Below, one piece after another: positions 26,306 through 50,114 of a DNA stretch of 64,000 nucleotides (positions within the stretch are counted from its first letter, which is position 1; every line of letters starts with the position of its first letter). This stretch comes from Candidatus Micrarchaeota archaeon. Its GTDB lineage: Archaea; Micrarchaeota; Micrarchaeia; Anstonellales; Bilamarchaeaceae. The stretch is taken from NCBI GenBank assembly GCA_018812715.1, contig JAHJCT010000011.1:114614-178613 (forward strand). The letters run 5' to 3'. The notes beneath the pieces are model-generated. The model did not search any database and was not told the origin of the DNA. It worked only from the letters and a program-made list of their open reading frames with translations. The translations under genes were made by a program, and so were the position numbers.

Positions 26306-28981
26306 ATGAATAAAATGTCTATTTTTCTTTTATTATTGACGTTCGTTGGCTTTGCATCGTTTAGTAATGTAACTGACAATGTCAATTTGGAATGGTCTGA
26401 TAATAATTTCCAAGCAGTTGATATCGCTGTTGGAAATATTGATGATGATCCACAACTTGAAGCTGTTATAGTAGGAACAGCAGGATCAGCTTGGGAAGAG
26501 ATGGGAATTGCAGTATTTGAATTGTCTTCTGATGCAATAACCTTTGAAGATAGTTTTTATCTTTCTCCTAGTGCACCACTTGATGCATATTATCCAACAT
26601 CAGTAATGCTGTGTGATGTTGACAATGATGGGACTAAAGACATTGTTACTGGCGGGTATATCGACTGGGGCGTCATAATGGATAAAGGCTTTATTTACAC
26701 TTATGAATTTGATGGAACTATCTCTCCGCAATATGATTATGATTCAATGAGCTTTACCAGGATTGAAGCGATAGGTGCAAGACAAAGTGCAACTGGATGC
26801 AGCATACATGCGGCTGGAACAAAGAATACTCCTGGACACCAAAGAGAATATACTGCCATTTTTAATGCCGCCTCAGGCATTTTAAATATGACTCATGAAT
26901 TCACAAAAGATTGGTTTACTGATTCAAGTGCTTATGGAATTGATTTCTTCCAAAATGGAACTGTTGTGACTGCTGGAACTGCTGAGGGCGGATGGGTAGG
27001 CAACCAATATGTCAGCCTTACAATAAATCCAGGAAATCTTTCACATACATTTGGTTTCACGGGAACAAACAAAGAAGCAACATCCCTTGTAATAGCAAAT
27101 ATTACTTCATCAGATCCAGAAGAAATTATCATTGGTGTTGATAGCTCTTCTATAATTACTGATACTGCCTATTTGTATGTCTTTAATAATAGCCTTAGCC
27201 AGTTAGCATATGTTTCATTTCCTACTGGTTATGGACTCTACAATTCATACTTAAATGATGTAGAAGTGTGCGACATTGATAACGATGGAGCAAGAGAGGT
27301 TTTTGCAGCTGTTGAATATCACACCAGCAGAGTATACAGCATGTTAAAAGGACACAATACCTTACAGATTTTCCATCTTGTTGGTCTTTTGGGAACATCT
27401 GAATATAATACTACAACTATAGGGGCCGGTTATGAATCTAGTCTTCAAGCACTTCGTTGTGCAAATACTGATGATGATACAAGAATGGAACTTGTTAGTG
27501 TCATAAATCTTGCTAATAGTACAAATAGTGACTATAAAATTGTGCTTGCAGTGTTAGAAGATGAACCGATAGTTCCAGAAATTACTGTGATCTCACCTTC
27601 TGATGGAGAAGCACTTAGTGGTATGTTTACTCCATCAATAAATGTCACTGATGATGCCGCTCCAGGCGATCTAATAGTACAATACAGAATCATTTCATCA
27701 AATATGACAAGTTATTACCAAACCATGAATAATACTAATTATCATTTCTATGCAACTGTCAATCTTTCATCTTACCCTGGTGGTGGGTATACACTTCAAT
27801 TCAAGGCAACAGATGATGAAGGCAATGAAGATATTGAAGCAGTTCACTTCTTTGTAGACAATACTCTCCTTACAGTAACTCTAGTTCAGCCTGCTGAAGG
27901 ATCAATTATTGCTCCAGGAACAGAACTATACTTCTCCAGTTCGCATCCACTTATTTCTTTCACATACTCTATAGACAATGGCACTACAAATGATACCTTA
28001 AGTGCACCTTATTTAGTTGAAACAGGTACTTGGGACGATGGACCAACATATGTAGATGTGTGGGCTGAAAGTATAACTGGCCAACTTTTCCATGATGTTT
28101 TTGAAATTGCCATAGATGGAACAGCACCAGAAATAACTGCATATCCATCTGATCTTACAATCTATCCTGGTGAAAATGTTGCAATCTTTGTACAAGATTA
28201 TGCACTTGGCTCACTTGTTTTTGAATATAGCAATTTCTCCGTAGATTATACTGGTGCTTCACTACCCATTGTACTTGACACCAGTAGTTGGGACGCAGGA
28301 ATATTTGGTGTAAGAGTTATTGCAATAGATGTTGCCGGCAACCCATCAACCGAATATTTCGGATTCAATGTTTTAGCAGCAGAAGTGCCGTCTGAACCTG
28401 CAGGGAACCAGAGCATGGCGAACCTTAGTGCTGAAGTTGCTGATTTGATAGGTACTGTTGAACAAGAAATTGCAGATGCAGTTGCTGCAGGTGAAGAAAC
28501 ATCACTTGCAAAAAAAGCATTAAGTGAAGCAAAGCGGCTTTTTTCTCTTGGTAAATATAAAATGGCACAACGAGCAGTTCTTGATGCAAGGGATAAGATA
28601 GGCCAATCAGTTCCAGGCGAAACTCCTCCGACAGAACCTCCGCCAACAGAACCGCCCCAACAGCCTCCGGTTCAGCCACCTCAACAACCACCGCAGCAAC
28701 CCCCGGCAAAACCCCAACAACCTCCGGCTGAAGAAATTCCAGAACAAGACAATACAATACTGCTTGCAGGTGCATTATTACTAGCATTACTGGTGCTTGC
28801 AGCATTAGCCTACTTTGTTTTAAGGAAACCTAAACCTCCTGCTGAACCTCCAGTAGAGGAAACTGAACCAGAAGAATTTGAAGCACAAAAAATAGCTGAA
28901 CCTCAAGAAGTAAAGCTCGAGGAATTACTGGCACAAAAAGCAAAGAAAAAGCGAAGGAAAAAGACTAAGAAAAAGAAGTAA
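26306..28981 (+). CDS. large secreted surface protein with FG-GAP/propeller-like repeats, Pro-rich linker, TM anchor and polybasic tail
   Basis: Signal peptide. CDVDNDGTKDIV and CDIDNDGAREVF are FG-GAP/VCBS-like Ca-binding repeats. Linker PPTEPPPTEPPQQPPVQPPQQPPQQPP, TM LLAGALLLALLVLAALAYFVL, tail KKKRRKKTKKKK. Confidence 0.5.
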   Translation: MNKMSIFLLLLTFVGFASFSNVTDNVNLEWSDNNFQAVDIAVGNIDDDPQLEAVIVGTAGSAWEEMGIAVFELSSDAITFEDSFYLSPSAPLDAYYPTSVMLCDVDNDGTKDIVTGGYIDWGVIMDKGFIYTYEFDGTISPQYDYDSMSFTRIEAIGARQSATGCSIHAAGTKNTPGHQREYTAIFNAASGILNMTHEFTKDWFTDSSAYGIDFFQNGTVVTAGTAEGGWVGNQYVSLTINPGNLSHTFGFTGTNKEATSLVIANITSSDPEEIIIGVDSSSIITDTAYLYVFNNSLSQLAYVSFPTGYGLYNSYLNDVEVCDIDNDGAREVFAAVEYHTSRVYSMLKGHNTLQIFHLVGLLGTSEYNTTTIGAGYESSLQALRCANTDDDTRMELVSVINLANSTNSDYKIVLAVLEDEPIVPEITVISPSDGEALSGMFTPSINVTDDAAPGDLIVQYRIISSNMTSYYQTMNNTNYHFYATVNLSSYPGGGYTLQFKATDDEGNEDIEAVHFFVDNTLLTVTLVQPAEGSIIAPGTELYFSSSHPLISFTYSIDNGTTNDTLSAPYLVETGTWDDGPTYVDVWAESITGQLFHDVFEIAIDGTAPEITAYPSDLTIYPGENVAIFVQDYALGSLVFEYSNFSVDYTGASLPIVLDTSSWDAGIFGVRVIAIDVAGNPSTEYFGFNVLAAEVPSEPAGNQSMANLSAEVADLIGTVEQEIADAVAAGEETSLAKKALSEAKRLFSLGKYKMAQRAVLDARDKIGQSVPGETPPTEPPPTEPPQQPPVQPPQQPPQQPPAKPQQPPAEEIPEQDNTILLAGALLLALLVLAALAYFVLRKPKPPAEPPVEETEPEEFEAQKIAEPQEVKLEELLAQKAKKKRRKKTKKKK

Positions 28982-29054: not shown

Positions 29055-29465
29055 ATGTACCGATTAGCTGTAAGACCATCTACAACGAAACCTCAACCAT
29101 CTTATCCATCTACGATCGAAGCGTTGAGAAATGGAAAAATCAATAAACCAATCTCTGCTTTAATCAAAATGATCGAAAAAGGGGATCCAACAGATAGATG
29201 GATGGCATGTGTTGAAATACATGATTTAGCCCTTGAAAATCCACAAAAAGCGGCACAAGCACTTCCAGCACTCTTAGATGCATTTGAAAAATGGGGGGCA
29301 GGAACCAAATGTGTTGTTGCTGAAACTTTAATAGCAATTGGTGATGCTCGTGTTTTACCAACATTAATGCGTGCAGTAAATCATGAAAATGCAGAAGTAA
29401 GGGAAAGAGTTCATTATGCACTTAGTGCTATTCCAGCTGTTTCTTTAGAAGTTATAAGACAATGA
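29055..29465 (+). CDS. HEAT-repeat (PBS-lyase type) protein
   Basis: Repeated ...[12 protein letters not shown].../...[24 protein letters not shown]... HEAT-like units. Confidence 0.45.
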
Positions 29466-29856
29466 TCCCTTTATCTCCATCAACTTCTACTTTTTGTCCA
29501 TTTTTCAGAATTTTGTAAATATCAGTTTCTGGTTTATCCACCATTGGTATTTTCGAGATTATTGCACCTACCGCGATTATTGGCTCTGCACTAATATTGA
29601 TTATTGCTGCAGGTGCCTTGCCATTTTTTGCAAGCTGGAGCATCACATAAGAACCCACTGTTGATCCTTTACCATTTGGAAAAACAAGAATCTTCCCGGC
29701 AATATTTTTTCCTTTTAATGGATGCCATGGCTCTATTATTTCACCGCTCGTTGGATCGACTCCACCAAGAAATCCAAGTGGTTCGTTGCTGATAAGAACC
29801 TCTCCGGAACCTTTTCCACGTGATATTGAACGACATTTGATCCCCATGATTATCAC
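29452..29856 (-). CDS. phosphomevalonate dehydratase small subunit (AcnX swivel domain, DUF126)
   Basis: 134 aa GKG-rich swivel-domain protein ([21 protein letters not shown]...) immediately downstream of, and overlapping, the DUF521 large subunit. Confidence 0.7.
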
Positions 29857-31022
29857 CGGTATAATATATCCTCAAGCTTGCCAAATGCAACCCTTTGCTT
29901 GCAAAGGCTCGGAAGATATTTGGCAGCCTTTCCTGAATTGGTTCCTGTAACATTGTAGCCCATTCTTTCCAGTGGACATACTACCATGCATGTATCCGCA
30001 ACAACCCTTCCTCCAGCCTCTTCTATTATTTTGCTATAACCAATCCTGTCGGCTTCTTCTTTTAATTTTCTCGAAGTGCATACCCAAAATTCACATGTTG
30101 GTTTTCTTGCTTCTACCATATTTGCTACTTCTCTTATCTCTTCAAGAGATGCATGCGGGCATCCAATGGTCACAAGCTGTGGTTTTTCTTTTGAATCAAG
30201 TTCTTTTTTTGAATTATTTAATTGAAATTCAGTGAAACTTATTTCTTCTGCATCTTCGGCAACATTATATTCTGGTGTAATATTTTCTACAAAGAAAAGT
30301 GGAACTGATCCGCTTGCTGCCATTGATGCTCCAAGTACTTTTAATTGCTCCTCAGTTGCAGATTTTATTCCAGTGAATGCAGGATATTTTCTTTTTGCTA
30401 ATTTACCAATAGCGAAACCCAAAGCACCAAAATCAGCAATATCCCCAAGCTTACATTGTACATTTACAATAACTGTTGCTACGCGGTTTTCATTCAAATG
30501 CAATCCGTAATTTGGCGTAACACCGCAAATTGCAGCTGCCAATGCTGATGGTCCGCCTTCACGATTTGTTCGTGCACCCAATACTGAATTTGCAAATGCT
30601 ACTGCACTGGATTCAGCCCATGCTATATGTTCCCCTTCCTTTGGTCTAATCCCTATGAAATACGGAGCACATGTACAAGTCTTCATTATCCCCATTTTTG
30701 AATATGCATCAAGAATTTGGATTTGTTTTTTAGCAAAATCTTCAGGAATCTTCATTTCTTTCCATTGTTCTATGTCCATTCCGGCAGGATTAAGGAAGGT
30801 TGGAATTCTTGTTTTTGCTCCTTTTTTTACTAAATCTTGTAAATATTCTAATCCGGCATCTCCAATTGTTTTGTAAGAAACCCCAGAAACTTGTGCACTT
30901 GTAATTGGAATCATTTTATCTGCATTGTATATTTTGCCCATGGCAACAAGTATCTCCATGGATTGTTGTACTGCTTCACCTAATTCGCCATCGTACATTT
31001 TCTGTTGTTCTTTAGTGAGCAT
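29853..31022 (-). CDS. phosphomevalonate dehydratase large subunit (aconitase X, DUF521)
   Basis: 389 aa AcnX-type protein with Cys ligands (…CTCAPY…, …CMVVCP…). Clustered with the UbiD/UbiX/IPK/MVK genes of the archaeal mevalonate route. Confidence 0.7.
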
Positions 31023-31031
31023 TGCAATACC

Positions 31032-32324
31032 TCAAAGATAGTTCTCAGGATCAATTTTTTTCCATTTTCCTTTTTCAAAACTTTTCCGATCAGAGAGCGG
31101 TTTAGTGGCATCTAATCCCATCTTACTTGTTTCTCTTGTATTTGGATCTGCACTAGGGTCAAGTGAAGAACCTTTTTCATTTTTCTTTACTATTAAATCT
31201 TTATTTGCCTGGAATCTTGTAGCAATTGCCCATTCTACTTCCGCAGGATCATCCACGTCAATATCATCATCAACAATAACTACATGCTTCAGTGATTTAT
31301 GCCCTGCAAATGCCGCTTCTATTGCTTTCTTTCCATCCTCTTCATTTTCCTTTTTGATTGAAACAACTGCATGGAGCCAGGAGCATCCGCCAGGTGTTAT
31401 ATCCACTGCTTTGCATTCACAAATTTTATTCACTTCATTGAAGATTGTTGGCTCTCTTGGCATGCCCATAAGCACTTTGTGTTCAAGACCACCAGGCAAT
31501 AATACATGCCACATTGCATCGTTTCGGTGATACATTTTAGTTACTTTCATTACTGATTGCTTTCGTATAATATCATAAGTTTCTGTTAGATCAATAAATG
31601 GTCCTTCATTATGCATTTCCTTTGTTATTCTCCCTTCAAATGCAAATTCACAATCAGCAGGTACTTGTATTCCATTACTAAGCTTCACTGTTTTTATAGG
31701 AACAAGGGCATTAGCATACTCTAATTCATCCTGCCCTAATTTAGAAGAAATAGCTGCTGAAAGAAGTACATTGATTGGTGCTCCAACTACAAATGCAACA
31801 TCAAGCTCTCCTCCAGCTCTTTTTATGAATTCATCAAGATGTCTTGGTAAGATTCTCATTACTAATTTGTTTTTACCAATTACCATCATTCTGTGAAAAG
31901 AAAGATTTCTTCCAAATTCTTTATCCTGTGCTATGACAATTGCTGATGAAAGATACGGTCCACCATCTTTTTCTGCATGTAATGGAATTGGCAATTTAGA
32001 TAGATCAATGTCTTCAGTGCTGTTTTCCAAAACTGGTCCATCATTTACAAGTTCTGGCTTTTTAGGATTGTTTGTTGCATGGACAAGTTTTGCTATAAGT
32101 TCTTTCTTTTTTATTCCAAGATACTCACATATCAGTTCTCTTGTAGAAAATACATTTCCAACTGCTGCAAAATCAGCATCTTCTACTTCTGGAACATAAA
32201 CTACTTCTCCGTCTAGTGCATGCATAAGTCCAGCCAAATCTAAATTCTTTGAAACTGATTTTTTTGCAATTTTGATTCTTTTTTCCTTTTTCAGTTTTTC
32301 TATAAAGTCACGAAATGTTTTCAT
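31032..32324 (-). CDS. UbiD-family decarboxylase (putative trans-anhydromevalonate 5-phosphate decarboxylase)
   Basis: 430 aa UbiD-fold protein. Genomic context with UbiX and AcnX points to the prenyl-FMN-dependent decarboxylase of the archaeal mevalonate pathway. Confidence 0.7.
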   Translation of the reverse strand: MKTFRDFIEKLKKEKRIKIAKKSVSKNLDLAGLMHALDGEVVYVPEVEDADFAAVGNVFSTRELICEYLGIKKKELIAKLVHATNNPKKPELVNDGPVLENSTEDIDLSKLPIPLHAEKDGGPYLSSAIVIAQDKEFGRNLSFHRMMVIGKNKLVMRILPRHLDEFIKRAGGELDVAFVVGAPINVLLSAAISSKLGQDELEYANALVPIKTVKLSNGIQVPADCEFAFEGRITKEMHNEGPFIDLTETYDIIRKQSVMKVTKMYHRNDAMWHVLLPGGLEHKVLMGMPREPTIFNEVNKICECKAVDITPGGCSWLHAVVSIKKENEEDGKKAIEAAFAGHKSLKHVVIVDDDIDVDDPAEVEWAIATRFQANKDLIVKKNEKGSSLDPSADPNTRETSKMGLDATKPLSDRKSFEKGKWKKIDPENYL

Positions 32325-32856
32325 TTCCCCACCTTTTTGATAATTTATGTTTTACTCCAATTTGGTCAAGCACTCTTGCTACTATAAAATCAATTAAATC
32401 GTCTACTTTTTTTGGTTTTCCATAAAATCCTGGACATGCGGGGAGAATCACTCCCCCTGCTAACGTTATTCTCTCCATATTTTTTATTGTAATTAATGAA
32501 TATGGTGTATCACGAACTACTAATACTAATTTCTTTCTTTCTTTTAACACTACTTCGGCAGCTCTATTGATGAGGTTATCCCCGACTCCATTGGCTATCT
32601 CCCCCAAACTTTTCAAAGAGCATGGAATTACTATTAATGCGTCAGGTGGATTTGAGCCTGAAGCATAAGGACATGAAAAGTCATTTTCAGCATAATCTGC
32701 CTTTGGAAGTTCTGTTCCTTCCGCTTTGGCTACTTCTCTCGCGCCTTCGCTAACAATAACGCTGAGCTTTACACTACTATCATGTTTCAGAACTTCGACG
32801 AGCCTCCTTCCATACTCTAAGCCCGAAGCTCCAGTAATGGCTACCAGTATACGCAT
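32308..32856 (-). CDS. ubiX: flavin prenyltransferase UbiX
   Basis: MRILVAITGASG... flavoprotein fold, 182 aa, overlaps the UbiD start. Confidence 0.85.
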   Translation of the reverse strand: MRILVAITGASGLEYGRRLVEVLKHDSSVKLSVIVSEGAREVAKAEGTELPKADYAENDFSCPYASGSNPPDALIVIPCSLKSLGEIANGVGDNLINRAAEVVLKERKKLVLVVRDTPYSLITIKNMERITLAGGVILPACPGFYGKPKKVDDLIDFIVARVLDQIGVKHKLSKRWGNENIS

Positions 32857-32916
32857 AATATTTCGTTATATTTTTCTCTTTTAAATATAGTACGTAAACA
32901 ATAATCGTTCGACAGA

Positions 32917-34014
32917 TCACGTATTTTGTTCGAATATCATCAGATCCATCCCGTGATCTTTGTCAATTCTCACTTTTTGTGTTTTTATAAATTTGAATAA
33001 CCCCTCTATCCTGTATTTTATCTGATCTAATGAAAGCCGTGGTCTTTCTATGATTCTTCGTATCTTTTCAGACATCTCAGGTCCAACTATGAATGGGTTT
33101 TCTTCTGCAACAATAAGTTTTGCACCTTTTTTCATTCTAAAACCTACTGCTAGCAACGGTGCTATAAAAGACGTGTAAGCAGTAGCATTGAACATCAATA
33201 CGGTATTGAATTCTACATCCTTTGGAAGGTCATCACTATGTTCTATATCTCCGCAAATGAATTTTATTTCTGAACCATTATTCACAACTAATGGCGTTTC
33301 AAGTACTGAAGCCATCTTTCTTGCAAACCTAATCATTTCAGCTGAAGAATCAATACCTACGTATGTGAATGGTTCTTTTATCATTCTATGTAATTGATGT
33401 AAATTTCTTCCCGATCCACAACATAAATCTAGTATTGGTTCTCGAATATGTTCTCTTACCTTCATTAGTGCCATATGCTGAGCTCTGTAATGCCCACTTT
33501 CTAACATGTAATCATCAAATTCAAACGCAATTTCATTCCATTGATTTGTAAATGAAGCAAAAGAACAATTGTAATGATGAAGTGGCATGTACAAATCTAA
33601 AGATTTGTCCCATCCAAACGGCACTTCTTTTATGTTTAGTCCATCTTCCTTGAGTTTGTAGGTCAATATACTCATCATTCTTCTTGCCAGTTCTGGTTCT
33701 GCTGAATTTTCACTTAAATGAGCAAAGGCAGCAATAACTATCTCCTCTACACCAAGCATTTGACGTGATCTTAGAATTGCTTCTTTTACATCATCCAAAA
33801 GATCAAGTCCATTATCTCCTTTTTCAACACAAACAAAGACAAGCAGGGCATTTTCTGCTTTAGTCTCTTTATTTGAATCATCTAGAATTGGCAGGACTTC
33901 TCCAAGTCTCTCTCTTAGTTTATCTTCATTCCGTTTTCTTCCGCCGCCATTTTTTCCGCTCTTTGCACCTGCTTTAATGCGAAGATTCTGTGCATGCATA
34001 AACAACATTTTCAT
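32917..34014 (-). CDS. fusion protein: ThrRS-editing/DTD2-like N-terminal domain + class I SAM methyltransferase
   Basis: N-terminal about 150 aa (MKMLFMHAQN...ALLVFVCVEKGD...IVIAAFAHLSENSAEPELA...VPFGWDKS) resembles the archaeal ThrRS N-terminal editing domain/DTD2. C-terminal half has MTase motif I ILDLCCGSGR preceded by the YDxxM..GH block shared with two paralogs. Confidence 0.5.
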   Translation of the reverse strand: MKMLFMHAQNLRIKAGAKSGKNGGGRKRNEDKLRERLGEVLPILDDSNKETKAENALLVFVCVEKGDNGLDLLDDVKEAILRSRQMLGVEEIVIAAFAHLSENSAEPELARRMMSILTYKLKEDGLNIKEVPFGWDKSLDLYMPLHHYNCSFASFTNQWNEIAFEFDDYMLESGHYRAQHMALMKVREHIREPILDLCCGSGRNLHQLHRMIKEPFTYVGIDSSAEMIRFARKMASVLETPLVVNNGSEIKFICGDIEHSDDLPKDVEFNTVLMFNATAYTSFIAPLLAVGFRMKKGAKLIVAEENPFIVGPEMSEKIRRIIERPRLSLDQIKYRIEGLFKFIKTQKVRIDKDHGMDLMIFEQNT

Positions 34015-34132
34015 ATTCTCATCTCAAGTGTTAGTTCTTGATTATTAGTGTATTTCATCATATATTAATATTTCTAGCAAAAATTTACAAAAAATGAAAG
34101 CTTTTTATTAATTTTTATAAAAAATAGCAATT

Positions 34133-35104
34133 ATGAGCCTAGAAGATCTTGATTTAATAGACCATAAAATTTTGTCTCAGCTTGATACTGATGCAAGAAT
34201 AAGCTACAGTGCATTGGGAAAAAAAATAAGAGTTGCAAAAGAAACAGTGAAGTATAGGATTCAACTTTTACAAAAAAATGGTATTATTCAAGGCTATTAC
34301 ACTGTTTTGAATCTCTCTAAACTAGGCTATACAATATATCGAGCATATATCCGCCTTCAAAATACCTCGCCTTCAATTGAACAGGAAATTATCGATTATC
34401 TATTGAAATCAAAGAAAGTAGTTGTTTTTTATCGCGTTACTGGTCCTTTCAATCTTGCTTTAGGAGTATTAGCACACAATACTTGGGAATATGAACATTT
34501 TTGGCTGGATCTAAAAAAGCAATTTGGAGAATATTTTTCTGATTATCACTTTTCTGTTTTTACCGAGTATTTGGAGTTTTCTAGACCATATTTCCTTCCG
34601 TCTAAAGAAGCTGTAAAAAACATTTTCACAACACTGAAAAAAGCAGAAATGGAAAAATTAGATAAATTAGATCTCGAATTGCTATCTTTTCTTTCTGACA
34701 ATGCAAGAGCATCCCTTGTTTCAATTGCTAAAAAATTGAATACCAGTGTTGTTACTGCCCGCCATCGTTTGAAAAACTTAATTAATAAAAAAGTAATCAT
34801 AGGTTTTAGACCTATCTTTAATCTTCGGGCTTTAGGAAGAGAATATTACAAAGTAGATTTATGGTTCAAAAAATTTGATCACATGGAGGAAGTACGTCAA
34901 CACATTATTTCGCACCCTGACGTTGCATATACTGAACGCAGTGTTATTGGAAGTGATCTAGAGTTCGATATCGAAACAAAGAATTTTGAAAGTTTTATCG
35001 CTACCATGGATTCATTCAAAGAAGAATTTCCAAATGATATTCGTGATTATTCTTATTACTCACTTATCAAAAATTACAAAATGAAATATGCCCCCGGGCT
35101 GTAA
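34133..35104 (+). CDS. tandem-domain Lrp/AsnC-like transcriptional regulator
   Basis: Two consecutive HTH+RAM modules (LDLIDHKILSQLDTDARISYSALGKKIRVAKETV... and LDLELLSFLSDNARASLVSIAKKLNTSVVTARHRL...). Confidence 0.7.
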   Translation: MSLEDLDLIDHKILSQLDTDARISYSALGKKIRVAKETVKYRIQLLQKNGIIQGYYTVLNLSKLGYTIYRAYIRLQNTSPSIEQEIIDYLLKSKKVVVFYRVTGPFNLALGVLAHNTWEYEHFWLDLKKQFGEYFSDYHFSVFTEYLEFSRPYFLPSKEAVKNIFTTLKKAEMEKLDKLDLELLSFLSDNARASLVSIAKKLNTSVVTARHRLKNLINKKVIIGFRPIFNLRALGREYYKVDLWFKKFDHMEEVRQHIISHPDVAYTERSVIGSDLEFDIETKNFESFIATMDSFKEEFPNDIRDYSYYSLIKNYKMKYAPGL

Positions 35105-35115
35105 GCAGTTTTTAA

Positions 35116-35889
35116 GTGCTTTCCATCCATTCTTTTCTTATGAAAATACTCAAATTAGGCGGTAGTGCAATAACTGACAAAAAAGCCTATAAAAAGGCCC
35201 GTCTTGGCCAGATAAAAAAACTAGCAAAAGTAATTGCAGAAATCTGGAAAAAAGGAGAAAGAGATCTGGTAATCGTCCACGGTGCTGGTTCTTTTGGCCA
35301 TGCGGTTGTTCTTAAACATGATATCAATGGTGGCATAAACTCAGATAAACAACGTGTAGGCTATGCAGATACGCACGCTGCCTGTTCAGAACTTTCCTTG
35401 TTTGTTGTGAAAGCACTTATTGGAGAAGGCGTTCCTGCAATTTCAATTCCGCCAGCTGTAATTATCAAACAGAAAAACAAAAGAATTTGTGAATTTCGTG
35501 AAGGTATTTTGAACGATTATTTATCAGCAGATTACTTGCCCGTATTATACGGAGATATGGTGCCAGATAATGAACTGAGAGGTTCTGTGTGCTCTGGAGA
35601 TCAGATAATGGCTTGGTTGGGTAAAAATGCAGAATTCCTTGTTTTTGTAACAAATGTTGGCGGAGTTATGGACGATAAAGGAAATCTCATCCCTGAAATA
35701 ACAAAAAATAATTTTGAAGAGGTTTCTAAACATCTGAAGGAATCACCCAATGATGTTACTGGTGCTATGAAAGGAAAAATCAAGGAACTTTTAGATCTAA
35801 ACAAGACATCTTACATTGTCAACACTGATCCTGAAAGAGTAAAGGCACTATTGATGGGGAAAAAAACAACATGCACAAAAATAAAATAG
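35116..35889 (+). CDS. ipk: isopentenyl phosphate kinase
   Basis: Amino-acid-kinase fold: ILKLGGSAITDK...VIVHGAGSFGH. About 257 aa, clustered with MVK and the AcnX/UbiD genes. Confidence 0.75.
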   Translation: MLSIHSFLMKILKLGGSAITDKKAYKKARLGQIKKLAKVIAEIWKKGERDLVIVHGAGSFGHAVVLKHDINGGINSDKQRVGYADTHAACSELSLFVVKALIGEGVPAISIPPAVIIKQKNKRICEFREGILNDYLSADYLPVLYGDMVPDNELRGSVCSGDQIMAWLGKNAEFLVFVTNVGGVMDDKGNLIPEITKNNFEEVSKHLKESPNDVTGAMKGKIKELLDLNKTSYIVNTDPERVKALLMGKKTTCTKIK

Positions 35890-36509
35890 ATTTGATTCTC
35901 AAGCAAATGCATAATGAAGCCAAAAAAAGAAATGCACCAGTTTTTCGTGCAGAAGATTCTACAAGAACACCATTCCAAATTCTTGTTTTCACGATGCTTT
36001 CTGCAAGGACTAAAGATGAAACTACAATGAAAGTTGTAAATCGCCTTTTCAAAGAAGCAAAAACACCAAAACAAATTGTTTCTTTAGGAAAAAATAAACT
36101 TGAAAAATTACTCTTTGGTGTTGGATTTTATCGTGTAAAAGCAAAGAATCTTCTCAAGGTTTGCAAAATTATCGAAAAAACTGGCCAAGTGCCTGATACT
36201 TTAGAAGAACTTCTCAAGTTTCCCGGAGTTGGTAGAAAAACAGCCAACATTGTACTTGCACGGGCCTTTGGAAAAAACACTATTGGTGTTGATGTTCATG
36301 TTCACAGAATAAGTAATAGGTTAGGCCTAGTAAAAACAAAAAAGCCAGAAGAAACCGAAAAAGCTCTACTAAAGAAAATTCCTGAAAAATACGTGAATAC
36401 TTTAAATAGGAATTTTGTTGCATTTGGACAAACAATATGCCTTCCAAGAAATCCAATGTGCTCAATTTGTCCAATAAATAAGTTGTGCCCTAAGATTGGA
36501 GTCTACTAG
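35871..36509 (+). CDS. nth: endonuclease III (Nth) HhH-GPD DNA glycosylase
   Basis: HhH-GPD region (LLKFPGVGRKTANIVL) and C-terminal [4Fe-4S] CLPRNPMCSICPINKLC cluster loop. Confidence 0.85.
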   Translation: MHKNKIDLILKQMHNEAKKRNAPVFRAEDSTRTPFQILVFTMLSARTKDETTMKVVNRLFKEAKTPKQIVSLGKNKLEKLLFGVGFYRVKAKNLLKVCKIIEKTGQVPDTLEELLKFPGVGRKTANIVLARAFGKNTIGVDVHVHRISNRLGLVKTKKPEETEKALLKKIPEKYVNTLNRNFVAFGQTICLPRNPMCSICPINKLCPKIGVY

Positions 36510-37408
36510 TGTCTTTTCTCTATCTGTGTTGTAAACGAATCCAATCCTTTTTTCTTGAACATTTCAGCTATTTTTGATGCTTGTTCCTGGTCTTTAGTAA
36601 GTGCGATGCAACATCCGCCTCCTCCGCCTCCAGTTAATTTCGCACCAATAGCTCCAACTTCAAGTGCAATTTTATTGATTTCATCATTGGTTTCATCTGA
36701 AACTCCTAATTCAGAAAGCAGACTCTGATTTGCATTCATTAATTTTCCAATATCTTCTATTTTTCCTCTTTCTATCGCATGTCTTCCATGAGTGGCAATA
36801 TCAGTATACTCATCCATCAATTGAGTAAATTCTTTTTCATCTTGCTCTTTGAATTTTTTCACTCTTTCTACCATCTTTGCTGTTTCACTATATTTCCCCG
36901 TAAATGTTACAACAAAATCCAATGGTTTGTATAACTCTAATAATTCGAATTTGTTTTTCTCTTTTCCTCTTTCGAAGAGAATCACTCCGCCATGTGTTGC
37001 TATTGTATTATCTATTCCACTTGGATTTCCGTGAAATGCCTTTTCTCCTTCATAAGCATACTTATTTACTTCTTCTTTAGTTAGGTGAATCTTTTTTTCA
37101 TCAGCAAATGCGTGTACCATAGCAACACAAAAAGCTGCAGATGACCCTAGCCCCCCATATGTTCTAAGATCCCCTCGAAGATGAACGCCGTATCTCTCGT
37201 GGATTCCCATAACTGCAAGAACCCTTTCTATACCAGCCAGGCTCATCTTTTCAACTACTTTGTGCTCAGTAATGATCCTATTCTTATCTGATTTTTCTAC
37301 TTCAACAGTAACTTTGCTTGATATTCCACCAGCTATAGCAGGTGCTCCGTGTACGACAAAATGTTCTCCAAATACTATTATCTTTCCCTGTGCCTCTCCA
37401 ATACCCAT
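36506..37408 (-). CDS. mvk: mevalonate kinase (GHMP kinase)
   Basis: GKIIVFGEHFVVHGAPAIAGGI N-terminal motif and GLGSSAA ATP-binding motif of GHMP kinases, 300 aa. Confidence 0.8.
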   Translation of the reverse strand: MGIGEAQGKIIVFGEHFVVHGAPAIAGGISSKVTVEVEKSDKNRIITEHKVVEKMSLAGIERVLAVMGIHERYGVHLRGDLRTYGGLGSSAAFCVAMVHAFADEKKIHLTKEEVNKYAYEGEKAFHGNPSGIDNTIATHGGVILFERGKEKNKFELLELYKPLDFVVTFTGKYSETAKMVERVKKFKEQDEKEFTQLMDEYTDIATHGRHAIERGKIEDIGKLMNANQSLLSELGVSDETNDEINKIALEVGAIGAKLTGGGGGGCCIALTKDQEQASKIAEMFKKKGLDSFTTQIEKRH

Positions 37409-37412
37409 ACCA

Positions 37413-38174
37413 TCAACCTTTTGGTTTTCTTCCTTTTACTTTCGGAGGTTTTATGTCTGGATAAGCGCCTGTTAGCATATGAGAACTTGCATATGGGCGA
37501 TATCCAACAGCCTCAAGACTTTTGCATATAATGTATGGATTTTTTCCTTCTAATTCCTTTAATACAAGTAAAGCATTTCCAAGTGATTTCTTCTTTCCTT
37601 TTGTTAAATTATTAACAGTTGCATCATCCTTTCCCATCCCAGAAAAATCAAATGCTTTATTTACAACACTGAAATTTATTCCCGAGAGTATCCCTGATAC
37701 CTCGTAATCCTGCACTTTCTCCATACTAAGTTTCTTTATTGATACCCAATCCTTATATTTTCCAATAAAAGCTATTTGTTTTCCAATTTCTTCTTTTTCT
37801 GGTTCTAATGTTGCGGTAGAAACCTTGAATTTGACATTTGCAGCTGACAACAGTCTATTGAACAAATAAGAATCAGCTGCAGATTTTAATTCTGGTTTCT
37901 TAACAGTCTCTTTTACTAATTTGTTCCACTCAGTAGATTTATTCTCAAGAAAAGAACATGCGGCTGAAACTCCTTTTCCATCTAATTTAACAAAATCTTC
38001 TATTTTCTTTGTATCTATCCCAGAAAACTTGTATGCATACGGCTCAATTACAGAACTTAGGTATGCAAGTGCCCCACCTACATCTTCAGCTTTTTTCTCA
38101 TTAAGATCAAAGCGTATTCCTAGGCTAAACTCTTTGTATGTTCCAGTAAATATTACTTCGTCTCCACCAAGCAT
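37413..38174 (-). CDS. hypothetical protein
   Basis: 253-aa ORF co-directional with and 5 nt downstream of mvk. No recognisable motifs. Confidence 0.4.
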   Translation of the reverse strand: MLGGDEVIFTGTYKEFSLGIRFDLNEKKAEDVGGALAYLSSVIEPYAYKFSGIDTKKIEDFVKLDGKGVSAACSFLENKSTEWNKLVKETVKKPELKSAADSYLFNRLLSAANVKFKVSTATLEPEKEEIGKQIAFIGKYKDWVSIKKLSMEKVQDYEVSGILSGINFSVVNKAFDFSGMGKDDATVNNLTKGKKKSLGNALLVLKELEGKNPYIICKSLEAVGYRPYASSHMLTGAYPDIKPPKVKGRKPKG

Positions 38175-41930: not shown

Positions 41931-44900
41931 ATGCGCGCATATCTTTTATTATTATTGATGATTTTAGCAGGTTTATCTTTTTCTATCGACGTTTCAAGCT
42001 GTGAGAATATCACAGCACCTGGTGTTTATGAACTAACTACCAATCTTGTAGGTGCACCTAATAATGCCTCTGAAGTATCGAGTATTGACTGGGCATGTAT
42101 AAAGATAGCATCTTCAGACGTAGTCTTTGACTGTATGGGATATACAATAACAAACGACGGAACTCTAGCTGCTGCAGGTATCGTTGTTAATGGTTCTAGT
42201 GGAATTAACTATCCCAATGTAACAGTAAGAAACTGCCCTTCGATTACACAATATTACTATGGTATTTACATTTATCGAACTAATGAAACTACCGTCACAA
42301 ATGTAACATTGTATAACAACACATATTCATTTGCTTCCCTTATATCTGATTATCTTAATCTCACAAATAACACAGCTTACGATCAAACTGCTGGTTTTGA
42401 GATTATTGGTTGTGCTGGATGCAGTCTTATTGATAATGTTGTTTACGATATGTCAGATGTTGGTATTGCTAGCAGTGGCTGTTTTTATTGTAATTTTATA
42501 AATAATAGTATGTATGACGGCTCAGATTATGGATTTTATATTGAGCAAACTGGTGATACTAATTTTATCAATAACACAGTTTTTGATATCTCTAATGATG
42601 CATTTCATATCAGCGGTGCTAGTGATTGCAACTTCATAAACAATACAGTCTATAACAGCCTCGATGGTATGGACCTTTATATGACCAGCAATATGACTAT
42701 CATCAATAACTCATTTTATAACAACAATGAAGATGCTATTGAAATTTATGAAGGTGGCGATAACAATTTATCAAATAACGAACTCTATAACAATGAACGG
42801 GGCCTCAGCATATACAATGCTTCTGCAACACGTGTAATCGGAGATCATTATTATAACAACAGCATAGATATCTTCGTTAATGGAACAGGAATAACAGTCG
42901 ATCTTTCTGGTGTTATCTTTGATAATGATGCTGGAACACTGGCAGATTACACAAACATCTCTTTAACTGATACAGTTGCATCCATCTACACTATAGATCA
43001 CGCAGTTCAACCCGCAGCACTACCGCCCAATATGGCGTCATTTGAAAATAAATTTGTAAACATTACAAATCTAACAAGCGGGGTTTCAATAGATACTATT
43101 ATCTGGCACTGGACAGAGGCTGAAACTGCTGGTTATACTGAAGCTAACTTTGAATTATGGAAATATAATGTTTCAGGTTGGGCCGATACTGGTGCTACCC
43201 CCAATACCGCAACTAACACATTCACTTTAACAAATCTAAATCCGGCAAGCACTTATGCAATATTGCAAACAAGTGTTTGTCCAGTTATAAGTTCAAGCGG
43301 AACATATGCCCAACTAGGCGATCTTGTTGGCGCCCCCAATTCTGCAAGTCCAGTTTTCGGTTCTGTATGTGTAAAGATAACTGCATCTAATGTTGTCTAT
43401 GATTGTAATGGTTATAGTATCACTAATGACGGAACAGGTTCTGCTATGGGTATAATGATTGGCAGAACATCAGATCTTAATCCAGAAATAACAAATGTTA
43501 CCGTTAGAAACTGCCCAAGCGTTTCGCAATATACCTATGGTATTTATACTCGCGGAGCTAATGATAGTTTCATAATTAATTCTACAGTTCACAACAATGC
43601 CGGCTATGGTACTTTCTTTATGCTCAGTAATGATATCACTGTTATCAATAGCACCGCACATAGCAATGGACTTGATGGATTTTATACCTCTACAAGTTCC
43701 ACATTTACTAATTTCTCCAATAACACAGCTTATAACAACACTCGTAGTGGTTTTGTTCTTTTCCCGGGAGCTAATAGTACAGTTTTGGATAACACTGCAT
43801 ATAATAACACGGAATATGGTTTCTACTGGAGAATGAGTGGTGGTAGTAACGCCATCAATAACACAGCACACAACAACGGGCTGAGTGGCTTCTATCTTTA
43901 TGATTCAGATAACAATACTCTTTTGAATAATACAGCGTACAATAATTCAAATGAAGGTATTCTTCTCGTTGATTCCAATAACAATGAATTCAATAATAAT
44001 GAAGCATATGAAAATTATGTTGGTATCTCAACTTATCATTCAGACTACAATACTCTGCAAAATAACTCGGTTCATAACAATGTAATGACTGCCATTGTTG
44101 TAAATAGTTCTTCTTATAACAATTTGACTAACAATACTATCTATAATCATCGCGGAGCGATGGGGCCAGCATTTGGAATTTATGTTGAAGCATCATCATA
44201 TCAAAATCAAATTACAGATAATAACCTCACTAATAACACGGTTTGTATAGTCCTGGGGGCAACCAGAACTGCATTTAATGGCGGTAACAATTGGATAGTA
44301 AATAACACTATGACTGATGCATATATGGGTGTTTTCCTTTACCTAGCTGATAATACATCTGTAATAGAAAATCATATCAGCAATGTTCCGGAGACGAGTG
44401 CAATTATCGTTTTAGGTTCTGATATTTATGGCATGTTTGGCGGCGGATATCTAGGCGCTTACAACAATACTTTCATTGGCAATGTAATAGAAAACAGTAC
44501 TGGTTTCATTTTCTACATGGCAAATAACAATGTAATTCAGTCAAATATTATAGCAAATGCCACTGGCTACTTTAATTGGTCTGACGCAGGGATTTTAGAA
44601 AATTATACTGGTTTTTACTTCTATGAATCCAATTATTCAAATCTGTCTGACAATTTAGTATACAATCTTTCTGGTTACGCACTCCACATAATCGATTCAG
44701 AATCTGTTAATGCCTCTGATACACATGTTTATAACAATGATAGAGGTGCTCTGTTTGTTTCTGCTTCAGTAGCAACAAATCTTTACTTATCAAACTTCAC
44801 AATAGATAATCCATCAGGCAACTTCCAAAATTATACAAGCATCTCACTTACTGATGCTGTTGATGGTGACAGTAAATATACTATTAACTGGTCATTCAAT

Positions 44901-47900
44901 TCAACTGCTTTACCTGCCAATTACTTTTCATTTGAAGGGAAATATGTAGATATAAGTCAATACAAAGGAGGAGTACCTAGTATAATAGATTCAATTACAT
45001 GGACTTGGCTAAATTCAGAGTTGTCAGGATATGATGAATCCAGATTTGAATTATGGCAATATAATGGAACTTGGACCAATATGGGTGCAACATTGGATAC
45101 TGGAGCAAACGCATTGACAGTAACAAACCTGAATCCAGAAAGTACCTATAGTATACTACAAAGTAATCTGTCTACATGTATGCTGATCAATTCTTCAGGT
45201 TATTATCAACTTAATACTAATCTTCAGGGTGCTCCAATAAATGCTGCCCCTCTAACCGGAACTGCTTGTATAAAAATAAATAGTTCAGATGTAGTCCTTG
45301 ATTGTAATGGATTTACTATTACAAATAATGGAACTGCTGGAACTACAAGAGGTATTCTAGCGGTAGGTCCAATCTCAAACATAACAATTTTCAATTGTCC
45401 AGGAATTGCAAATTATACCAATGGTATTGAGGTCGTTGAATCTAATGATACCTTAGTTCTAAATAATACGGTCTATGAAATTGGCACCGATGGTTTAAGT
45501 GTAACAAACTGTACCAACTCTGAATTTATCAACAACACAGCTTACAATATTACAGATGATGCCTTTGACTTTTACAACTGTACCAATATTACAGTGATAA
45601 ATAATACTGGCTATTTGATATTTAGTGGTGACATCTTTGAAAATAGTCTTTGCAACAATTGTGATTTCATAGATAACAGTGCTCTTGGAGGATTCGCCGA
45701 TGCCTTTGACTTTAATTATTGTAATAATACAAACCTCATAAACAATACCTTAAGTTTTGCTTTAGATAATCTTGTGGAAGCAACCTATTCTATAAATTGG
45801 ACCGTAATTAACAATACACTTCACGATGCTGGAAACGATGCCTTTTTCTTTGGCGATGCTGTCAATATTGTTTTCCTAAATAATACTGTTCATGATATAC
45901 AAAATGAATTCTTTGATATTGAACTTTGTAGTAATTGTAACCTCACCAACAACACAGGTTACATGTCATATGCTGGGGGCGGACTTAATCTTATTGATTC
46001 CAATATCATTACAGTAACAAATAACACTTTCTATGATGTTACTCTTGATGCTTCATATGCAGAAAATTGTACTAATTGTAATTTCATAAATAACACCGCT
46101 TATAACTCCACTGATGCAGATATATTTGATTTCGACAGATGTACTAACCTTACAGTAATGAATAATAGTGGTTTTCTAACACTTAACAGCAACATCTTTG
46201 AAACTAGCCGCTGTAATAATTGTGATTTCATAAATAATCTTGCTATGGGGGCAATAATTAATGCTAGTAGCGCCTTTGACTTTGCTGCTTGTAATAATAC
46301 CAACATCATAAACAATAATGTAACCTGGAGTATTAATGATCTTGTGCAAGTAAGTTATTGTATAAACTGCAGTGTAATCAATAACACACTTTACTATGCT
46401 GGGGGAGATGGTTTTGCTCTTGGTAAATCTATCAATTTTACTCTTTTAAATAATACAGTCAATGGTGTTATAGATGACGGAGCTGATATAAAAGAGTTAA
46501 ATGATAGTATCATTAGAAATAATTTATTATATAATATATCTGATAACGGTATTGAATTTTCTGAATGTGATAATTGCACTCTAATCAACAATACTATTTA
46601 TAATGTAAGTATTAATGGCTATTACTTAGATGAGATGACTAATTGTGTTCTTATCAATAATACAGCCTATGATATTGGAGACGATGGATATGATGGTGGA
46701 GATTCAAGCAATACTAATTTCACAAATAATTTAGCTTATGATACTGGAGGTGACGGTTTCCAATTTGAAGACTCTACTAACATCATTTTCCTTAACAACA
46801 CAGCATACGACAACCCTGAGTTTGGGTTCAGCCTAAACAACTCGCCGAGCAACACTTTTGTCAATAACACAGCGTATAATAATGGATATGCTGGGTTTGC
46901 TGCATTCCTTGGCTCTAATGGCAATAATTTCACCAGAAACCTGGCTTACAACAATACTGGTTTTGCACTCCTTGAAGTTTATAATACCAATCTGGATTCC
47001 AATATTGCGAGAGATAGTGAGGGTTATGGGGTCCAGGTAATTGGTCTTATGCTAGGCATACCATTTGTTGATGATCTAGATGACGTTGGTTTCCTTTTCT
47101 ATGAATCCGATAGTTCTATTGTATTCAACAATAGTGCTTACAATTTCACAGGAAACATGAGCGGAGATGAAGAATCATATGGTTTTGTTGTTTACTTAAG
47201 CGACAATAACAACTTCACCAACAATCTTGCACATACTACTAATGATTCCGGCTTCTTATTGCTAAATTCATCTTACAATAATCTTACCAATAATACTGTA
47301 TATGACAACCGGGAAGCTGGAATAGCTCTTGAAGAGAATTGTACTTGGAATATTCTAACTAACAACACTGCCCACCATAATGGCCTTATCGGTATTAATC
47401 TACAAGATGGTCCTTTCGCAAACGGAATATATGGAACAAATGCTTATAGTAATGGCTGGTGTTCCTTCCAAATTTTTGATGCTGATACGAATGGCTTCAT
47501 TAACAATACAGTGACTAATGACACTGGTTTCATTGTCATATTTTCCAATGATACTCAAATCCTTTCAAATACTGTAGCCAACAGCAGTGGAAGTGGAGTA
47601 AGCTCTTATATACCAACAATTGATGATAGTGGTGTTGTTTTGATATACTCTAACTACACTAATATATCTGATAATGTGGTTTACAATTTAACCAACAACA
47701 CATCTCATGCTTTCTATCTTGATCAAAGCAATAACAATCTTCTCATAAATAATACAGCTTATATTAATGGAGAAACAGGTTTCTATGTGCACAACTCCCA
47801 TTACAATACCTTAGTGAATAATACTGATAACAACAACCATGAAGGTTTTATTATTGACAGTGGCTCGTCCTTTAATATTCTCTATAACAACACGGCCATG

Positions 47901-48446: not shown

Positions 48447-50114
48447 AATACAGTATATAATCATAGCTTTGGATTTATGATAAATTCTAGTTTATCTAAC
48501 AACTTCACCAATAATATGGTTCATGATATTCTTTGGCAAGGTTTCAATTTCTGGAATGCTAGTGATTCTGTTCTTACCAATAATAATGTTTATGGAAATG
48601 ATGTAGGTATAGGGCTTGATACATGTGGAGATAATTATTTGATTAACAATGAACTCTATGATAATAGCATAGGCCTTGGCATCGTCAATTCTTCTGCAAC
48701 TTTTGTAACAAGAGATCATTACTATAACAATACTATTGATTTTGGAGTCAATGGAACCGGGATAACAATTAATCTCTCAGAAGTTATCTTTGATAATCCA
48801 TTAGGAAACTTTGTCAATTTCACAAACATCTCTCTAAACGACACAGTTGCATCTGCTTATTCAATAGATCATGCAGTCGAACCTGCTCCATTGCCAACCG
48901 GTGCAACATCCTTTGAAAATAAATTTGTAAATATCACTAATGCCACCTCAGGCGTTTCAATAGATTCCATCGTCTGGCATTGGACAGATGCTGAATCAGT
49001 AGCATATGATGAACCTGCGTTTGGAGTATGGGAATACGATGGTTCTTGGTCAGATACTGGAGCAACTCTTGATACTGCAGCAAATACTCTTAGCCTCAGC
49101 AATCTTGCTACATTCAGCATTTTTGCAATTCTAGAATCTCCTGAAGATGAAGAAAATCCAAGTGATGAAGATAAAGAGTTTAGTCTATCATTTGATTCAA
49201 CATGTGATGGCAATACTCTAACTGTTACTTATAATGGCAATCCAGTTCCTGGTGCCTCAGTCAATGTCTATAATCCAACTACTATGCAAACCATTGCCTT
49301 AGGTACTACAAATGTTAATGGTGAATTCGAATTTAGTGGTTGTGACCTTACGATCCAAGTTCATGTTAGCAAAACTGGTTACGATTCTGAGACAGTTACC
49401 GAGCAATTAATTAACTGCGAACTTTGCCTAGAAGAAGAGGAACATCTTGAATGTGTGGATGATTTATGCATTGTTGTTCCCGGTCTTGGTCCAAATCTTT
49501 GCTCTTTAGATGCTGACTGCATGGAACCAGTGTACGAATGTTACTCAGATAATGATTGTGACGATACTGACTACTGTGACATTCTAGAAGGCGAAGCTGG
49601 AGGCAATTGTTTACCTGTTACTGGCGACTGTGGTTATGCACAAAATCATACTTGGGTTCAATATGAGTGTGGAGTTGATCCAGAATGTGTCCTTTGCCCA
49701 GAAGGTTTAGTTTGTGTAGAACATCAATGTGTAGAGGCCAATCTTACTGGTCCAGGTGAAGGATTTGTAGATGCTGAGGTTGATATAATCGCTACAATCA
49801 ACAACGAAACTTGTGCTTACTGCGATATTGAAATTGTTGATCCAACTGGCGAGCATTTCACTGGTTTAACAGATGAAAACGGAAGGATCCAAGTTCCATT
49901 GAATCTCAAGGGTCAATATACAATTACGCTTCTACAAAATGGACAAGTACTTGCTTCAAAAACAGTAGATGCGATTCCAAAGGCCCCACCTACAGACGAA
50001 CCCCCCCCAACAGAAAAGATTGGTGAGGACTTTACCTGGCTGTGGTTATTCATACTTTTAGCTGGCTTCTTTATTCTGTTCTTCTACTGGAGACAAAGGA
50101 AAAAGAAGAAATAA
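48447..50114 (+). CDS. in-frame continuation of the beta-helix surface protein: C-terminal segment with Cys-rich domain, TM anchor and KKKK tail
   Basis: Same frame as 41931..48446 with no further stops. Repeats a 170-aa module of the upstream segment almost verbatim. Ends ...FTWLWLFILLAGFFILFFYWRQRKKKK. Lacks its own signal peptide. Confidence 0.6.
   Translation, partial: NTVYNHSFGFMINSSLSNNFTNNMVHDILWQGFNFWNASDSVLTNNNVYGNDVGIGLDTCGDNYLINNELYDNSIGLGIVNSSATFVTRDHYYNNTIDFGVNGTGITINLSEVIFDNPLGNFVNFTNISLNDTVASAYSIDHAVEPAPLPTGATSFENKFVNITNATSGVSIDSIVWHWTDAESVAYDEPAFGVWEYDGSWSDTGATLDTAANTLSLSNLATFSIFAILESPEDEENPSDEDKEFSLSFDSTCDGNTLTVTYNGNPVPGASVNVYNPTTMQTIALGTTNVNGEFEFSGCDLTIQVHVSKTGYDSETVTEQLINCELCLEEEEHLECVDDLCIVVPGLGPNLCSLDADCMEPVYECYSDNDCDDTDYCDILEGEAGGNCLPVTGDCGYAQNHTWVQYECGVDPECVLCPEGLVCVEHQCVEANLTGPGEGFVDAEVDIIATINNETCAYCDIEIVDPTGEHFTGLTDENGRIQVPLNLKGQYTITLLQNGQVLASKTVDAIPKAPPTDEPPPTEKIGEDFTWLWLFILLAGFFILFFYWRQRKKKK

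Follow-up and report, generated by a model that had tools for sequence, protein, structure and literature searches.

A probable gene cluster for the lower half of the archaeal mevalonate pathway in a Micrarchaeota archaeon

A cluster of six genes from a Candidatus Micrarchaeota archaeon very probably encodes the lower half of the archaeal mevalonate (MVA) pathway, the route that proceeds through trans-anhydromevalonate 5-phosphate (tAHMP). The cluster lies within positions 114,614 to 178,613 of contig JAHJCT010000011.1, a stretch of 64,000 nucleotides that is referred to here as the window and whose own numbering is used throughout. The genes specify mevalonate kinase (MVK), the small and large subunits (AcnXS and AcnXL) of a phosphomevalonate dehydratase (PMDh) of the AcnX family, a UbiD-family decarboxylase assigned as anhydromevalonate phosphate decarboxylase (AMPD), the UbiX flavin prenyltransferase, and isopentenyl phosphate kinase (IPK). 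In the proposed sequence of reactions, MVK would use ATP to convert mevalonate to mevalonate 5-phosphate, from which the two-subunit Fe-S enzyme PMDh would generate tAHMP. Decarboxylation by AMPD, employing prenylated flavin mononucleotide (prFMN) made by UbiX, would then furnish isopentenyl phosphate, and its phosphorylation by IPK would yield isopentenyl diphosphate (IPP); pathway flux is predicted to follow this course. The archaeal route, composed of MVK, PMDh, AMPD with prFMN, and IPK, uses one ATP less than the classical route (PMC12547664). A model's earlier reading of the same DNA, made from the letters alone (the sequence-only reading), had recognized the six genes of this route, and the complete set of genes for the conversion of mevalonate to IPP, along with the prFMN synthase, is indeed present.

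This is a known pathway in a known type of cluster, for which orthologues from a sister genus are already annotated, and beyond correct annotation the finding has little significance. The GenBank labels of the genes are generic (e.g. “UbiD family decarboxylase”) and could be improved by annotation at the level of the pathway. Should the assignment hold, a Micrarchaeota lineage would use the ATP-saving archaeal route to get from mevalonate to IPP, which bears on the question of DPANN lipid dependence on hosts. The cluster itself would represent an inherited arrangement typical of its lineage, together with one unrelated two-gene module gained in this genome.

The pathway genes

The six pathway genes and the family models that they match are as follows.

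29452-29856, minus strand: AcnX small subunit (swivel domain, DUF126, phosphomevalonate dehydratase); PF01989, E 1e-35; NF003046, 183.9 bits against a cut-off of 163
29853-31022, minus strand: AcnX large subunit (type II, DUF521, phosphomevalonate dehydratase); PF04412, E 5e-160
31032-32324, minus strand: UbiD-family decarboxylase, assigned as AMPD; TIGR00148, 346.9 bits against a cut-off of 244.85
32308-32856, minus strand: UbiX flavin prenyltransferase (prFMN synthase); TIGR00421, 195.2 bits against 108.9; NF004685, 191.8 bits against 188
35116-35889, plus strand: IPK; NF040647 (IPPK_Arch) equivalog, 197.1 bits against a cut-off of 120
36506-37408, minus strand: MVK; TIGR00549 equivalog, 228.4 bits against a cut-off of 163

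The open reading frame (ORF) map agrees exactly with the coordinates that the sequence-only reading had given for these genes. Its family assignments likewise survived searches with Pfam and NCBIfam models, which agree for every family, the curated cut-offs being passed by DUF126, UbiD, UbiX, IPK and MVK. An independent assembly of the same organism (L001, from Logan SRR2540949) has the identical gene order. Two start codons deserve comment. With a GTG start the AcnX small subunit gene overlaps that of the large subunit by 4 bp, and with the ATG at 29847 the two are separated by 5 bp; the ATG is the likely start, and the gene caller assigned a protein of 131 amino acids in L001. Similarly, IPK likely begins at the ATG at 35140, the gene caller having assigned 249 amino acids to it in L001.

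Phosphomevalonate dehydratase

The two AcnX subunits find their closest counterparts in the type II AcnX of Thermococcus kodakarensis (TK1249/TK1248; PDB 7CNR, 7CNS). The large subunit matches 7cnr_A with an E value of 9e-108, 51% identity and 364 bits, against 1e-58 and 203 bits for the type I proline dehydratase, and the small subunit matches 7cnr_B (TK1248) at 2e-36, against 4e-19 for the type I enzyme. Cys118, Cys288, Cys345 and Glu137 of the large subunit have Cys and Glu counterparts in the alignment with the T. kodakarensis subunit, so that the aligned cysteine ligands are kept, and the same four residues match by motif Cys122, Cys297, Cys356 and Glu145 of Aeropyrum pernix PMDh. In the A. 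pernix enzyme these three cysteines, the ligands that were mutagenized, hold a [4Fe-4S] cluster (PMC10040528). The T. kodakarensis AcnX whose structure was solved carried a [3Fe-4S] cluster, with no activity shown (PMC10040528), and it differs from the window enzyme in that the latter belongs to a mesophilic DPANN organism.

Of the two cysteines in the type I CxC motif, type II AcnX enzymes lack the second (PMC10040528). Consistent with this class, the window enzyme is encoded by separate, adjacent subunit genes, has cysteines at sites A, 1 and B, and is without the type I cysteine at site C, the site B region reading DTCMVVC with no CxC motif. A single-polypeptide AcnX, with an N-terminal swivel domain and with sites B and C forming a CxC pair, is ruled out by the presence of two genes and the absence of CxC. 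The NCBIfam model NF051439 gives AcnX 294 bits against a cut-off of 700.

Mevalonate kinase, isopentenyl phosphate kinase and flavin prenyltransferase

The 11 best PDB matches of the window MVK are all mevalonate kinases (E 3e-49 to 9e-19), and the GHMP motifs GEH (residue 14), GLGSSAA (86), SGID (130) and TGGGGGG (259) are in place. Models of phosphomevalonate kinase (PMK) return only 66-70 bits on this protein, far under their cut-offs. The first match, 2hfs at 3e-49, is presumably a trypanosomatid MVK, while the methanogen structures match far less well (6mde and 4hac at approximately 1e-29, 1kkh at 1e-25). This ranking suggests that the window MVK may be of a lineage other than the euryarchaeal one.

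For IPK, the seven top-ranking PDB entries are IPK structures (one was deposited under a different name), with 7n9d first at 2e-35, and the protein carries the motifs GGSAIT and HGAGSFGH. UbiX is identified as the prFMN synthase for the UbiD enzyme by its TIGR00421 score together with the overlap of its gene with the start of the UbiD gene.

Identity of the decarboxylase

The six gene families, the split AcnX with three ligand cysteines, the pairing of UbiD with UbiX and the terminal position of IPK are all shared with the archaeal MVA pathway of A. pernix and Methanosarcina mazei (Hayakawa et al. 2018; Yoshida et al. 2020, both as cited in PMC12547664). Several points nevertheless weigh against reading the window in the same way. 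Whereas the enzymes of A. pernix and M. mazei have been characterized, the window lineage is known from its genes alone. The closest solved structure to the UbiD protein is that of HmfF (6h6v; E 2e-75, 40% identity), no AMPD structure appears among the matches of the PDB search with this protein, some of its close homologues are labelled “2,5-furandicarboxylate decarboxylase 1” by JGI, and the NCBIfam model for it is the generic UbiD subfamily only. Its assignment as AMPD stands on gene context, a residue signature and a neighbor-joining tree that carries no support values and is built without the characterized AMPDs of A. pernix and M. mazei. The upper-pathway genes for ACAT (thiolase), HMG-CoA synthase (HMGS) and HMG-CoA reductase (HMGR), along with IDI, are not in the 64-kb window. 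Finally, a 2025 survey of Micrarchaeota frames the pathway by MVK, PMVK, MVD and IPK, assigns PMVK and MVD to an ancestor by inference, and leaves AcnX and UbiD unmentioned (PMC12892359); because of this, a redundant classical route may, formally, run in parallel in the same genome.

The likeness to HmfF, the JGI labels and the generic family model would all suit an explanation in which UbiD, UbiX and AcnX serve unrelated chemistry, namely decarboxylation of the HmfF-like or aromatic-acid kind and dehydration of the hydroxyproline type, with the proximity of MVK and IPK being incidental. This explanation is considered very improbable. The split AcnX without the type I CxC motif, which scores far higher against PMDh than against proline dehydratase, speaks against it, as does the recurrence of the six-gene association across phyla (see below), and the decarboxylase itself can be told apart from HmfF. 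In the neighbor-joining tree, rooted on Escherichia coli UbiD, the window protein falls in a clade of 96 members, comprising itself, 80 AcnX-linked homologues and 15 library representatives, from which both HmfF and AnInD are excluded. The sequence-only reading had held that it would be refuted by enzymes of the classical route elsewhere in the genome, together with a grouping of the AcnX and UbiD homologues with unrelated functions; for UbiD no such grouping was found.

The residues tell a similar story. R157, D251, R254 and W316 are common to the window UbiD and all 80 of the AcnX-linked homologues; in HmfF these positions read L, G, A and R. The full 15-position signature is matched by 71 of the 80 homologues, with the other nine deviating only by a Lys at position 290. 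The substrate site of HmfF reportedly includes H296, R304 and R331, as described by Payne et al. in 2019, and it is R331 that occupies the place of W316. An HmfF-type furandicarboxylate decarboxylase was thus rejected as a candidate, given its position outside the clade, the exchange of W316 for R331 and the further differences at 157, 251 and 254. HmfF (PDB 6H6V, 6H6X) does share the UbiD fold with the window protein, with N140, R145, E200 and E240 at the cofactor and metal sites kept between the two, but it is without AcnX context.

The window UbiD protein is identical to GenBank MBU0532089.1, and its nearest named relative, at 76% identity, is from Ca. Bilamarchaeum dharawalense, where UniProt names the orthologue anhydromevalonate phosphate decarboxylase. 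The AcnX orthologues of the same organism are named phosphomevalonate dehydratase large and small subunits, the UbiD and AcnX orthologues together being 73-76% identical to those of the window. None of the fetched proteins has the primer-derived termini of M. mazei AMPD.

Extent of the pathway

The sequence-only reading had described the pathway as near complete. This overstates its extent, as the window holds four steps and the cofactor synthase only; the same reading was right to find no HMGS, HMGR or IDI in the window. Among the plausible window ORFs of at least 110 amino acids there is no ACAT, HMGS, HMGR or IDI, nor is there a PMK, a diphosphomevalonate decarboxylase (DMD) or a phosphomevalonate decarboxylase (PMD).

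The missing upper genes invite the alternative that the cluster is a salvage device, in which an organism lacking the upper pathway would turn host-derived mevalonate into IPP by means of the lower half. Ca. Micrarchaeum harzensis provides a precedent of sorts, as it is reported to be without HMGR and to depend on host lipids (PMC8975820). Set against this, complete MVA pathways have been reported in the Anstonellales by the 2025 survey, which infers that the ancestor had ACAT, HMGCS and HMGCR (PMC12892359), and the window, a quarter of one contig, is a weak guide to genome content. The presence of a prenyltransferase gene that resembles digeranylgeranylglyceryl phosphate (DGGGP) synthase also argues against salvage, which is regarded as distinctly unlikely. 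This gene, too, had been placed correctly by the sequence-only reading:

3683-4525, minus strand: UbiA-family prenyltransferase; PF01040, E 5e-37

Its best NCBIfam model is PRK12884 (223.9 bits), followed by PRK12882 (geranylgeranylglycerol-phosphate geranylgeranyltransferase) at 166.7 bits, both scores being under their cut-offs. Judged from these matches, the gene is probably DGGGP-synthase-like and would consume products of the pathway, 25 kb from the cluster.

Clustering of the pathway genes in other genomes

The archaea-type route is the most universal of the MVA routes and includes the majority of DPANN, and MVA genes are usually clustered (PMC11052028). For comparison with the window, 80 loci anchored on UbiD homologues were drawn from archaeal and bacterial genomes at one genome per species, using an alignment of 13 sequences as the query, and further contigs were added by exact protein look-up, resulting in a comparison set of 83 other UbiD-anchored loci. 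All six genes are found within the fetched flanks of 22 of these 83 loci, a sample that is biased to relatives of the window UbiD and has little bearing on cultured model archaea; where at least 9 kb is available on either side of UbiD, the proportion is 15 of 35. Of the 59 loci with enough downstream sequence, 55 have UbiD, AcnXL and AcnXS together within 6 kb, and loci of this kind come from Micrarchaeota, other DPANN, Asgard archaea, Thermoproteota and contigs labelled Chloroflexota. The co-localization of the six genes is not due to chance, because they recur together in 22 other loci of several archaeal phyla.

The clustering had been described as tighter than usual, a claim that the comparison does not bear out. 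The six genes span 4,958-14,573 bp in the 22 other loci, and in 16 of these the span is shorter than the 7,957 bp of the window. Three loci (L026, L051, L058) have the order MVK-UbiX-UbiD-AcnXL-AcnXS-IPK, uninterrupted and co-directional, in 5.2-5.8 kb. In eight Asgard loci all six genes fit into 5.6-7.9 kb; the order in six of these loci is UbiD-AcnXL-AcnXS-MVK-IPK, and UbiX lies downstream on the opposite strand. Taken together, the six-gene operons of Asgard archaea, Aenigmatarchaeota and Iainarchaeum (e.g. L031, L051, L058, L080; 5.0-7.9 kb) resemble the window cluster in having all six families and the same UbiD-AcnXL-AcnXS order, and differ from it in the order of MVK, IPK and UbiX, in being more compact and, for some, in being fully co-directional.

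A closer relative is the cluster of Ca. Bilamarchaeum dharawalense (CABMJJ010000007.1), an organism of the order Anstonellales (PMC8561730). Its orthologues are 57-76% identical to those of the window, and it shares the DUF2666-MVK pair, endonuclease III and the succession UbiX...UbiD-AcnXL...AcnXS. It differs in extending over 14.6 kb, in having IPK at the far end and in being without the Lrp and fusion genes described below. The genes inserted in it are a Band_7 gene, a gene for an uncharacterized protein of 344 amino acids between UbiX and UbiD, and small ORFs.

Some of the UbiD-anchored loci carry bacterial labels. Those labelled Chloroflexota, Anaerolineae or Brevefilum (L061, L066, L068, L070, L072-L078) have UbiD-AcnXL-AcnXS triads whose UbiD is 45-48% identical to that of the window, with no MVK or IPK within 10 kb. 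Three further loci, labelled Anaerolineae (L029), Acidoferrum (L056) and Nanopelagicaceae (L060), have a UbiD 48-53% identical to that of the window; L060 holds an Asgard-like six-gene cluster, L056 a UbiD-AcnXL-AcnXS triad and L029 the UbiD homologue only. These three may be mis-binned contigs in public metagenome-assembled genomes (MAGs) or real transfers.

Other genes of the cluster and its proposed transcription units

The genes that lie among or next to those of the pathway are listed below.

32917-34014, minus strand: fusion of a domain resembling the editing domain of threonyl-tRNA synthetase (ThrRS) with a class I S-adenosylmethionine-dependent methyltransferase, 365 amino acids; PF08915, E 4e-21, and Methyltransf_25/31
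34133-35104, plus strand: tandem Lrp/AsnC regulator with a double helix-turn-helix, 323 amino acids; two HTH_AsnC-type stretches
35871-36509, plus strand: endonuclease III-like glycosylase; HhH-GPD, E 7e-26; TIGR01083, 185.9 bits, below the cut-off of 211.7
37413-38174, minus strand: DUF2666-family protein, 253 amino acids; same strand as MVK and 4 bp upstream of it

The spacings and overlaps at the gene junctions suggest three transcription units, with boundaries that are predicted on this basis. The first would be a tight operon of UbiX-UbiD-AcnXL-AcnXS, in which genes overlap or are separated by no more than 9 bp: UbiX and UbiD overlap by 17 bp at the UbiD start, and AcnXL follows UbiD after a gap of 9 bp. 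A TATA-like element (TATATTTAAAAG) is situated upstream of UbiX, in the 60-bp spacer between it and the fusion gene. The second unit would comprise Lrp, IPK and endonuclease III, the gap between Lrp and IPK being 11 bp, and the divergent fusion and Lrp genes are 118 bp apart. The third would be formed by DUF2666 and MVK.

The fusion, the Lrp regulator and endonuclease III had been viewed as three interruptions of the cluster. All three genes are where they were reported, but they do not represent three separate events. Endonuclease III, on the strand opposite to MVK, accompanies it in L002-L010, L013 and L088, and is located between MVK and IPK wherever the locus includes IPK. It is not a pathway gene, but a matter of conserved synteny in close Micrarchaeota.

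The fusion protein consists of PF08915 (tRNA-Thr_ED) at residues 45-141 and Methyltransf_25/31 at residues 193-304. The label DTD2-methyltransferase given to it previously is incorrect for the N-terminal domain, which is a ThrRS editing domain; there is no match to the DTD2 family PF04414, and PF08915 is the sole deacylase-like Pfam match. The architecture is rare, with six proteins found in a word-indexed search of approximately 5.8 billion protein clusters. In all three of the other Micrarchaeota contigs examined, a fusion orthologue (38-42% identical) is found near an orthologous double Lrp (60-64% identical) as a divergent pair (L085, 6086-9068; L086, 6102-9074; L087, 2578-6099), and each of the three fusion genes lies directly upstream of a gene for ThrRS or another (class I) aminoacyl-tRNA synthetase. 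This neighborhood hints that the module may function in tRNA or aminoacylation quality control. Neither gene is present in the MVA cluster of any other locus, and one of the module-bearing contigs shares its MAG with L003, whose MVA cluster is without the module. As this MAG has the pair outside its MVA cluster, the tandem Lrp and the fusion are one conserved two-gene module, which was moved between UbiX and IPK in the window lineage.

Relatives have inserts of their own within the UbiX-UbiD-AcnX operon. These (L003, 12580-13914; L002, 8934-9968 and 12815-13375) include glnA, for glutamine synthetase, between the AcnX subunit genes and genes for uncharacterized proteins of 344, 374 and 186 amino acids, of which the 344- and 374-residue genes are positioned between UbiX and UbiD. 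The latter two were compared with the fusion protein as possible homologues, with a negative result. From this variety of inserts it follows that the core operon tolerates insertions in this family.

The relocated foreign module, the varying inserts and an MVK closer to the non-archaeal structure 2hfs than to methanogen enzymes could also be taken as marks of a recently acquired, horizontally transferred island. The GC content of the cluster, however, matches that of the surrounding DNA, no mobility genes are adjacent, and the order of the pathway and flanking housekeeping genes is kept across Micrarchaeota whose UbiD is 66-76% identical. A horizontally transferred island was rejected on its GC content and the conserved flanking synteny, and is held to be exceedingly improbable; an inherited cluster remains the preferred account.

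The DUF2666 gene

Among the Micrarchaeota relatives that have the DUF2666 gene, with identities down to 48%, it mostly occupies the position immediately upstream of MVK, in the same orientation (L002, 1560-2339; L003, 1112-1891; L004, 5351-6130; L088, 6001-6774), and the gaps between the two genes are 4-10 bp where gene calls are available. The window protein is assigned to DUF2666 (PF10869) by a match in both sequence and fold to PF2050 of Pyrococcus furiosus (3v68). It is built of two repeats of a β-hairpin plus helix and ends in a conserved basic C-terminal tail (...PDIKPPKVKGRKPKG). Fold searches with the model returned nothing informative except 3v68, and a literature search on DUF2666 and PF2050 found no relevant mention. 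It is conceivable, if rather doubtful, that the protein is a dedicated partner of the pathway, such as a regulator or an accessory subunit of MVK. If so, this would be the first functional context for an orphan archaeal fold whose crystal structure has been available since 2012.

Surroundings of the cluster

The window has a GC content of approximately 36%, with no compositional break at the cluster, and includes the archaeal genes Hjc, aIF5A, S24e, L18e, Kae1 and SMC. The flanking housekeeping genes that are syntenic with relatives are those for an RNase H-like protein, a GTPase, Hjc, Kae1, S24e and aIF5A. An AbiEii toxin gene and an AbiEi-like antitoxin gene, which form a type IV toxin-antitoxin pair, are found at 50817-51907 on the minus strand, in what is a small DPANN genome.

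Four very large predicted proteins are encoded on the plus strand, at 26306-28981 (891 amino acids), 41931-48446 (2171), 48477-50114 (545) and 56533-62094 (1853). The 891-residue protein has sub-threshold FG-GAP and Big_13 matches only. Three of the four have right-handed β-helix repeats (two of them also NosD), along with CarboxypepD_reg or Laminin_G_3 domains, and these large proteins may serve in attachment to a host.

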